DNA of 14,021 bases from a virus. Where the stretch lies: UHGV virus genome UHGV-0240988. The stretch is one strand, 5' to 3'. The first letter of the stretch is position 1. Each line of letters begins with the position of its first letter. The notes beneath the pieces are model-generated. The model saw nothing but the letters and a program-made list of their open reading frames with translations. It made no database searches and was not told the origin of the DNA. A program made the translations under genes and the position numbers. Shown piece by piece: positions 10,466 to 11,190 of this stretch.

Positions 10466-10547
10466 ATGACCATCTACATCACTGAGCTAATAGCAGGGTT
10501 ATCGTTACTAATGGTTCTTACTGTATATATTATTAAGTATATTCTTT

Positions 10548-11159
10548 ATGCGAATAAAAAAACCAATTGATCACGATGAGCTTCTGTCAACATTATCATA
10601 TGACTCAGAAACAGGAATATTTAAATGGCTAAAAACAAATTCAGTAGTAAGAGTAAAAGGTAGTATTGCTGGAGGTGTTAGTGGTGGTTATATATGCATT
10701 AGCATAAATAATGTTTTGTATTATGCGCATAGGCTTGCTTGGTTCTATGTATACAAAAAATGGCCTCCTAAGTTTATTGATCATGTAAATGGGAACAGAC
10801 TTGACAATAGGATTTCAAATCTAAGACTGGCAACAGAGGAGCAGAATGCAAGAAACATTGTAGGTAATAGGTTAAACACATCCGGTGCGATTGGAGTGTC
10901 TTGGGATAAGACAACTGGCAGGTGGAAGTCTTATGTTGGTTATAAAAATAAGACAATATCGTTAGGGTATTTCGATAGCAAAGAAGATGCAGCATTCATA
11001 GCAGCACTAGCAAGAAAGAAACTATATGGAACTTATGCGAGTAAAGCACTTAATTGCGAGCATGAGCTTTTATCTCAATTTAATAATGATGAGGATAAAC
11101 TTGCGGAATATCTTAAGGAAAAATCTAAAAGGACTCGAAAGCGTGTTAAAAAAAGATAA
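10548..11159 (+). CDS. HNH homing endonuclease with AP2-type DNA-binding domain
   Basis: 203 aa; HNH core ...IDHVNGNRLDNRISNLRLAT...; AP2-like segment GVSWDKTTGRWKSYVGYKNKTISLGYFDSKEDAAFIA; strongly AT-rich (hand counts about 32-35% GC); followed by a terminator. Confidence 0.75.
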   Translation: MRIKKPIDHDELLSTLSYDSETGIFKWLKTNSVVRVKGSIAGGVSGGYICISINNVLYYAHRLAWFYVYKKWPPKFIDHVNGNRLDNRISNLRLATEEQNARNIVGNRLNTSGAIGVSWDKTTGRWKSYVGYKNKTISLGYFDSKEDAAFIAALARKKLYGTYASKALNCEHELLSQFNNDEDKLAEYLKEKSKRTRKRVKKR

Positions 11160-11190
11160 AGGCCTGCTGGTAATCGCAGGCCTTTTTATT
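11160..11190 (+). terminator. Rho-independent terminator (apparently bidirectional) after the HNH gene
   Basis: Stem GGCCTGC (11161-11167) / GCAGGCC (11176-11182), 8-nt loop, then TTTTTATTT; the reverse strand also has a T-run after the stem. Confidence 0.65.

Follow-up and report, generated by a model that had tools for sequence, protein, structure and literature searches.

A putative free-standing HNH-AP2 homing endonuclease gene inserted in ninA at the tR2 terminator of an Escherichia coli lambdoid prophage

The stretch of 14,021 nucleotides analysed here, UHGV virus genome UHGV-0240988 (hereafter the window, meaning the whole of this stretch), comes from an Escherichia coli lambdoid prophage and matches strain W224N (NZ_CP094339) at 100% identity. 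Its rightward early operon has, after the replication genes and before ninB, an AT-rich insert of 665 bp (10498..11162, + strand), whose only open reading frames (ORFs) are a 203-codon gene for an HNH endonuclease with an AP2 domain (10548..11159, + strand; RefSeq WP_001220570.1, ‘HNH endonuclease’) and a short leader ORF that overlaps its start. Comparison with empty sites, including that of phage lambda, places the insert inside the micro-gene ninA and next to the intrinsic terminator tR2, and the cassette is probably a free-standing homing endonuclease gene (HEG) of the HNH(HNN)-AP2 type.

The insert and its target site

The prophages MB46 and JX21CE33 have the same toprim gene followed by the same 68-residue gene without the insert, and the distance from the toprim stop codon to the next gene is 76 nt at these empty sites versus 741 nt in the window. 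In the alignment, homology with the empty allele ends at 10497 (...GAGCTAATAGCAGG) and restarts at 11160/11163 (AGG, then CCTGCTGGTAATCGCAGGCC...); the boundaries are ambiguous by a 3-nt AGG at both ends, such that 10495-11159 is equivalent. Alignment with insertion-free relatives thus gives base-exact boundaries at 10498-11162 and identifies ninA/tR2 as the target. An earlier reading made from the letters of the window (the sequence-only reading) had proposed a mobile homing-endonuclease island in a block of about 33% guanine plus cytosine (GC), and the composition is as described: the GC content is 34.1% in the insert versus 50.4% and 48.9% in the 2-kb flanks, and values of 0.31–0.37 over 10401-11200 form the minimum of the window, with about 0.49 on either side. 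Uniform presence and composition among relatives would have spoken against that proposal; the gene is absent from lambda, MB46 and JX21CE33, and the composition is strongly non-uniform. The HNH-AP2 ORF takes up 612 of the 665 bp, and 50 nt on its 5′ side and 3 nt on its 3′ side lie outside it.

Phage lambda has the empty site. Its ren stop codon overlaps the ATG of a 26-codon ORF (MTIYITELITGLLVIAGLFIWGRGKS) whose own stop overlaps the ninB ATG, and this ORF contains the hairpin AGGCCTGC-TGGTAATC-GCAGGCCT, followed by TTTTTATTT. The ORF has been named NinA in a study that puts tR2 30 bp downstream of its AUG and 16 bp short of its stop codon (PMC4824070), and both distances agree with the lambda sequence. 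As a micro-gene of lambda and P22 (lambda 40567-40647; 468-548 in locus L008), ninA runs through the tR2 hairpin and is start/stop-coupled on both sides (ATGA, GTGA). It is open at all 142 empty sites compared, which come from phage and metagenome contigs, with lengths of 24–31 codons; the first 22 residues are nearly invariant, and the stop usually overlaps the next start codon. The openness and near-invariance of ninA suggest that translation through tR2 may modulate termination. The ninA/tR2 sequence of about 70 bp is conserved in almost all lambdoid phages.

In the window the two halves of this site lie on either side of the insert. The left half is the native 5′ part of ninA (MTIYITELIA plus GG; 10466..10497, + strand), which is the same at the empty sites of lambda, MB46 and JX21CE33 and in all filled alleles save for one or two variable bases (a T/A polymorphism at codon 10, position 10493; CTT GTA in MB46), and which is kept behind six to seven unrelated upstream genes. 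The right half is the native lambda tR2 (11160..11191, + strand; terminator scan and RNA fold), outside the insert, with stems AGGCCTGC (11160-11167) and GCAGGCCT (11176-11183), an 8-nt loop and the tract TTTTTATTT; it is identical to lambda 40596-40629, between ren and ninB. The displaced 3′ part of ninA (GLLVIAGLFIWGRVNRG and a stop codon), recognised by comparison with the intact NinA of the 142 empty sites, occupies 11161..11214 (+ strand) without a start codon, and its TGA overlaps the GTG start of the 68-residue gene. These comparisons put the insertion point inside ninA, with codon 11/12 on one side and the first base of the tR2 stem on the other; the insert splits the host ORF without an in-frame fusion to the HNH gene.

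The insert limits taken from the empty sites also alter the reading of the two features that had been assigned to the ends of the island. The closing terminator does score on both strands (hairpin and T-run, 11158-11191), as had been claimed, but it is native tR2, identical at empty sites including lambda; its reverse-strand T-run is the A-rich 3′ end of the HNH ORF, and no convergent gene uses it. The 34-codon ORF at 10466-10570 exists, but it is a chimera whose first 32 nt are native ninA and do not belong to the island.

An imperfect direct repeat of the target ATAACAGG flanks the insert, as ATAgCAGG (10490-10497) and ATAA-AGG (11155-11162), with one mismatch and one gap. It may be due to chance, or it may be a trace of an original microhomology-mediated insertion.

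The HNH-AP2 protein and its expression signals

The assignment of the 203-residue protein as an HNH endonuclease with an AP2 domain, made earlier without database searches, agrees with the profile matches. Pfam HNH_3 (PF13392) scores 57.8 bits against a cut-off of 24.8, with the whole 46-position profile covered, and the match to phrog_99 (HNH endonuclease) has an E-value of 3.8e-72; the AP2 match (PF00847) reaches 32.6 bits, just below its cut-off of 33.3 (E = 1e-7), and PF00847 is listed in the precomputed Pfam annotation of the cluster representative. No NCBIfam model matches the HNH protein, NinA, the chimeric leader product NinA′ or the 68-residue protein. Full-length homologues outside the cassette are at best about 50% identical.

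The HNH_3 catalytic core spans residues 58-103 (HRLAW ... DH ... DNR ... NLR ... QN..N; 10719..10856, + strand), as given by the Pfam match (residues 58-102) and the alignment to PDB entry 1U3E. Residues D78, H79 and N100 align with D74, H75 and N96 of I-HmuI, which are the catalytic Asp-His pair that serves as general base and the metal-binding Asn, and among 32 homologues no change is seen at D78, H79, N87, N91 or N103, while N100 is kept in at least 90%. An inactive motif would have weakened the case for an endonuclease; judged by its residues, the HNH motif is intact. The protein has no CxxC pairs. The AP2 DNA-binding domain, a three-stranded sheet plus a helix, covers residues 114-161 (10887..11030, + strand; Pfam, WRI1 7wq5 and Foldseek), with predicted strands at 117-120, 125-132 and 135-142 and a predicted helix at 145-163 in an AlphaFold2 model (mean predicted local distance difference test score, pLDDT, 88.8). 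In Foldseek searches this model matches I-HmuI (1u3e_M) with a probability of 0.99 over 106 columns (root-mean-square deviation 3.9 Å) and the AP2 domain of plant TEM1 (7et5) with a probability of 1.00 over 48 columns (1.1–1.2 Å). The protein is thus modelled as an I-HmuI-like nuclease of the beta-beta-alpha-metal fold joined to an AP2 fold. A C-terminal extension (residues 165-203; 11040-11156) with two predicted helices and a basic KRTRKRVKKR tail is absent from 31 of 31 aligned relatives and may make an additional DNA contact.

The chimeric ninA′ ORF (34 codons; 10466..10570, + strand) was taken from the ORF list, is kept in all filled alleles, and is annotated as HK022_56. It comprises 10 2/3 native ninA codons and 23 insert-derived codons and overlaps the HNH start by 23 nt, the HNH ATG lying 20 nt before the NinA′ stop. 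There is no Shine-Dalgarno sequence before the HNH ATG at 10548, in agreement with the sequence-only reading, and the ninA′ ORF probably brings ribosomes to this start. The toprim TAA stop in turn abuts the ninA ATG, and the simplest reading is that the HNH gene would be translated at a low level by coupling to NinA′, itself coupled by TAA-ATG to the toprim gene. We also considered the hydrophobic tail of NinA′ as a functional substitute for the NinA C-terminus. This is unsupported: an open run of 23 codons has a chance of about 17% at the insert composition (estimated from base frequencies), and AT-rich DNA gives hydrophobic or basic peptides by default.

No promoter-like site is present on the + strand in 10200-11500. 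From its place in the pR operon, upstream of tR2, the HNH gene is expected to be repressed in a lysogen and to be transcribed early when the phage grows lytically. Its TAA stop (11157-11159) is 0 nt from the tR2 stem, and the hairpin itself is unchanged in the RNA fold. Termination at tR2 is almost fully repressed if a stop codon sits a few bp upstream (PMC4824070), and because the HNH stop abuts the stem, ribosomes finishing the HNH gene might lower termination there.

Distribution and variation of the cassette

Among 5,426 complete E. coli genomes, 126 have the cassette at 97.6–100% identity, at 138 places in all. A 72-nt query made from the lambda empty site finds 2,886 places in the same genomes, at 80% coverage or more in 1,884 of them, so that about 2,700 empty sites, often several per genome, stand against 138 filled ones and the occupancy of ninA/tR2 sites is about 5%. 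The cassette is also present in phage HK022 (98.6% identical) and in the Shiga toxin (Stx) phages PA28, 1717, SH2026Stx1 and others. A cassette 32-mer is found in 21 IMG/VR contigs and has one match among 185,579 GTDB species representatives, which is an Escherichia contig. Of the 126 E. coli genomes, 115 have an intact left junction and 119 an intact right one, and the exceptional junctions that were examined are insertions of the insertion sequences (IS) IS1203, IS100 or ISEc8. A partial left-junction match (H135), considered as an excision scar, proved to be an ISEc8 insertion in the cassette leader.

Flank contexts were counted at the 23 loci where both flanks are readable, and the junctions are identical at all 23. 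Upstream of the filled sites there are six to seven unrelated classes of sequence (toprim, P22-gp12-type DnaB, ren gene ends, and three to four others) and downstream there are about six, making at least 13 upstream/downstream combinations; the homology common to different contexts is 32 nt to the left and about 40 nt to the right of the insert and is confined to ninA/tR2. The ORF of strain SCU-109, in a DnaB context, is base-for-base identical to that of phage PA28, in a ren context, and an identical ORF in unrelated flanks implies very recent transfer. Both the constancy of the junctions across at least 13 pairings of flanks and the sharing of one ORF sequence by a DnaB and a ren context speak for the earlier proposal of a mobile homing-endonuclease insertion, and by them the cassette behaves as a mobile element.

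About 20 of the 23 filled alleles have G at position 10493, 5 nt from the junction. As the first empty alleles all had A, this G was considered as a base of the insert, which is ruled out by the IMG/VR empty sites, 23 of which are G-type and at least 120 A-type. The base is thus a natural polymorphism of ninA, which makes codon 10 read Thr or Ala, and it is linked to the cassette. It is weak evidence for a single origin with tight linkage or co-conversion, with which it fits.

The 203-codon ORF is intact in 21 of 23 copies, and the other two share a frameshift from A7 to A8. This lies in the A7 run of codons 3-5 (10556..10562, + strand), where the ORF is broken by A8 in MS 196-1 (L007) and in IMG/VR locus L022; the run, which falls where the HNH and NinA′ frames overlap, may be prone to repeated slippage. 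Among six intact variants there are 18 polymorphic sites, of which 11 are at third codon positions, and pairwise ratios of nonsynonymous to synonymous polymorphism (pN/pS) are mostly 0.2–0.3. On these sequence measures, purifying selection is acting on the HNH ORF. IS1203, IS100 and ISEc8 are found in or beside the 5′ part of the cassette in some O157 and other strains (L012, L013, L181), and decay by frameshift and IS insertion is consistent with the life cycle of an HEG.

Several related arrangements were found. A metagenome contig (L010 3919-4516) has the same left junction in ninA, followed by a hybrid HNH ORF (P0004, 171 residues) of which residues 1-66 are those of the cassette protein save for a natural variant at residue 59, and which goes over, at the conserved AHRLAWF motif, into a different HNH-AP2 paralogue of higher GC, overlapping rusA. 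The contig lacks the 3′ part of ninA, tR2 and the genes from ninB to ninG; two HNH paralogues have apparently recombined here, with the loss of most of the nin region. In strain AMSCJX03 (L015 2827-3536), ninF is split after codon 36 by a second AT-rich HNH-AP2 gene, of 35.5% GC where the flank has 48.8%. The architecture is that seen at ninA, with an upstream chimeric ORF that overlaps the start of the HNH gene and, behind this gene, a 3′ remnant. The MS 196-1 prophage has three HNH-AP2-type genes (L011 4720-5163, 6210-6776 and 8909-9421), namely a frameshifted copy at the ninA site, one located between ninF and ninG whose product shares 39% identity with the window protein, and a third downstream of Q.

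The early operon of the window reads rightward, all on the + strand, as cro (6900-7100), cII (7239-7538), an O-like gene (7701-8477), the toprim primase/helicase gene, the insert region, the 68-residue gene, ninB and ninE. The toprim gene (8585..10465), which belongs to the replication module and forms the upstream context outside the insert, matches Pfam Toprim_2, AAA_25 and DnaB_C, and its product (RefSeq WP_021561763.1) matches phrog_239, DNA primase/helicase, at 2.7e-171. On the other side, and likewise context only, are the gene for the 68-residue hydrophobic protein (phrog_1165; 11207..11413, + strand), one of about six alternative downstream neighbours of the ninA/tR2 site, and ninB (orf), a recombination mediator gene (11421..11867, + strand; Pfam NinB at 1.5e-48).

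Elsewhere in the window, a second AT-rich block (GC 0.34–0.38 around 4600-5100) adjoins the CI-type repressor gene. The region 4495-5966, on the − strand, encodes a DUF6932 protein (5421-5966), with a match at 2e-10 to PDC-M63A, a candidate defence family of PADLOC, and a 309-residue protein (4495-5424) with no family match; it is a possible defence cassette that the lysogen would express. In the early-left region, the gene at 3093-3716 (− strand) has the RefSeq annotation ‘Nmad5 family putative nucleotide modification protein’.

Interpretation and comparison with known systems

Three marks of a free-standing homing gene are seen at this locus: presence or absence at one site with precise junctions, the lack of an intron or intein, and sporadic occurrence across unrelated backgrounds. 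We therefore favour, with reasonable though not high confidence, the interpretation that the cassette is a free-standing HNH(HNN)-AP2 HEG inserted in ninA at tR2. The gene would be transcribed from pR within the early-right operon of cro, cII and the replication genes, silent in the lysogen and expressed in lytic growth, and ribosomes would reach its ATG by way of the NinA′ leader ORF, TAA-ATG-coupled to the upstream gene. The protein would recognise the ninA/tR2 sequence of about 70 bp. AP2 domains favour GC-rich DNA (PMC10448857, citing Magnani 2004), and that of the cassette protein probably binds the GC-rich tR2 palindrome next to the junction. Cassette-free genomes would be nicked or cut near the insertion point, and recombinational repair from a filled genome, by the phage Red/NinB functions or those of the host, would copy the cassette together with nearby flanking markers; the filled allele would be protected, the insertion having split the recognition sequence.

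Several observations weigh against this interpretation. We found no functional data in the literature and no cleavage, nicking or homing assay for this protein or a close relative. The AP2 match is 0.7 bits under the gathering threshold. An occupancy of about 5% and a range confined to Escherichia are low for an efficient homing element, which might be commoner. The homology shared by different contexts is short for repair-mediated copying, unless donor and recipient have a longer flank in common on at least one side, and ordinary shuffling of lambdoid modules, including crossovers inside the cassette, could give the same diversity of contexts.

A stronger form of the homing interpretation would have homing with co-conversion actively driving the reassortment of replication and nin modules and, in addition, the cassette wired into the regulation of the early operon; we regard this conjunction as doubtful. 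For the first part, no sequence between the replication and nin modules is better conserved than the ninA/tR2 linker that the element would target, and exchange between HNH-AP2 paralogues at other places in the nin region, of the kind seen in L010, would add to the reassortment. For the second, translation would be coupled to NinA′, and translation of the HNH gene, with its stop 0 nt from tR2, would suppress termination. The sequence-only reading had suggested that the element could drive mosaicism, for which L010 is the one case and is anecdotal.

Under a passive alternative, the cassette would be a relic of one insertion, spread by ordinary homologous recombination among mosaic lambdoid phages and doing no useful cutting now. 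Low occupancy, the copies broken by frameshift or IS elements and the missing functional data all suit it, as does the finding that empty sites show the same seven upstream contexts, which indicates that the ninA/tR2 linker is reshuffled without the cassette too. A relic accords less well, however, with pN/pS values of 0.2–0.3 and the excess of third-position changes, with 21 of 23 ORFs and the catalytic residues being intact, and with the very recent transfer implied by identical ORFs in unrelated flanks, and we consider it unlikely.

The nuclease might instead be a weapon in competition, kept because the phage gains from it, that would cut the empty ninA/tR2 of superinfecting phages or of induced co-resident prophages and so exclude these rivals, with copying as a side effect; exclusion of related phages had been raised from the sequence as well. 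The biochemistry would be the same as in homing, the E. coli genomes offer the target at about 2,700 places, the role would suit a gene expressed from the early operon in lytic growth, and the sole PADLOC match is a weak one to a ‘homing endonuclease’ model. Marker exclusion by free-standing HEGs of T4 is established, reportedly in the mobE paper. By sequence alone this possibility is inseparable from homing, but the rarity of the cassette speaks against a strong fitness benefit, and we think it quite improbable as the primary role.

Any other kind of element is very improbable: the imperfect 8–9-nt direct repeat at the insert ends (ATAGCAGG ... ATAA-AGG) resembles a target duplication, and HNH genes of lambdoid phages are often packaging factors (HK97 gp74 type), but a transposon or IS is rejected because there is no transposase, a repeat search found no terminal inverted repeats and the repeat at the flanks is not a perfect one; an HEG-bearing group I intron is rejected because Rfam finds no intron family in 10300-11400, with only sub-threshold matches on the terminator hairpin, and the 50 nt and 3 nt outside the ORF leave no room for a ribozyme; and a packaging HNH protein, which would be a zinc-binding CxxC type encoded beside the terminase genes and cos, is rejected because the HNH_3 type has no CxxC zinc site and because the gene follows the replication genes and precedes ninB in the early-right operon, with no terminase gene nearby.

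As a homing gene, the cassette is an ordinary selfish element and not a new kind of system, and it is already public, in GenBank since the HK022 genome and in RefSeq as ‘HNH endonuclease’. We found no open-access paper stating that it interrupts ninA at tR2, and this placement is a refinement of what was known. It makes a textbook regulatory site, tR2 within the ninA micro-ORF, the natural target of a selfish nuclease gene, and its value lies in annotation, through base-exact limits of the element, and in the design of experiments: wild-type lambda (empty) and HK022 (filled) form a natural recipient/donor pair for testing whether HEGs have a part in mosaicism among lambdoid phages, including Stx phages.

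The same element is present as gp57 plus gp56 of HK022 and in the Stx phages PA28, 1717, SH2026Stx1 and Stx2a_WGPS6, with 97.7–98.6% identity over the 666 bp compared, the same ninA/tR2 junctions and the same 34-codon chimeric leader ORF. The upstream module differs, being a P22-gp12-type DnaB helicase in HK022, lambda P/ren in the Stx phages, and the toprim primase-helicase in the window. The window protein has four to six amino acid differences from these copies, with L6P, Y120D and P122T in all comparisons, N202K in most, and K59Y only against the PA28/SCU-109 type. In HK022, gp56 and gp57 are both annotated as ‘hypothetical’, whereas the Stx phage copies are called ‘HNH’ or ‘homing’ endonucleases, the PA28 record having ‘homing endonuclease’.

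More distant comparisons are with HNH_3 nicking enzymes of Bacillus phages and with the HEGs of T4. The catalytic core and the N-terminal beta-sheet DNA-binding region match those of I-HmuI (PDB 1U3E), I-HmuII and I-BasI, although the sequence similarity to I-HmuI is marginal (E = 0.39); these enzymes are encoded inside group I introns and have NUMOD/helix-turn-helix modules at the C-terminus, where the window protein has AP2. The seg and mob HEGs of T4 resemble the mode proposed here, in that they lie between or inside conserved genes, cut the empty allele and spread by repair with co-conversion, and, like the window gene, they have weak translation signals of their own. They are mostly of other nuclease families (GIY-YIG), in a virulent phage and with demonstrated activity, against a predicted one for the window gene.

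The closest known class is that of the free-standing HNH(HNN)-AP2 endonucleases described in Xanthomonas oryzae phages with the same motif boxes (PMC2248197), and HNH-AP2 HEGs are also recorded in ICP1, T4-like phages and cyanobacteria (PMC10448857, citing Magnani 2004). Xp10, OP1 and Xop411 and the Magnani class, including the IPA-HNH of ICP1, have the same order of an N-terminal sheet, an HNN nuclease and then AP2, share the boxes HRLAW, WP, DH, DNR, NLR and (E/Q)N and are likewise free-standing and patchily distributed, with a decay series. The cassette described here differs in its identity of about 50% or less to the closest database relatives, in its unique C-terminal extension of about 40 residues, and in its situation, which is a temperate lambdoid phage with a defined terminator/micro-ORF target.

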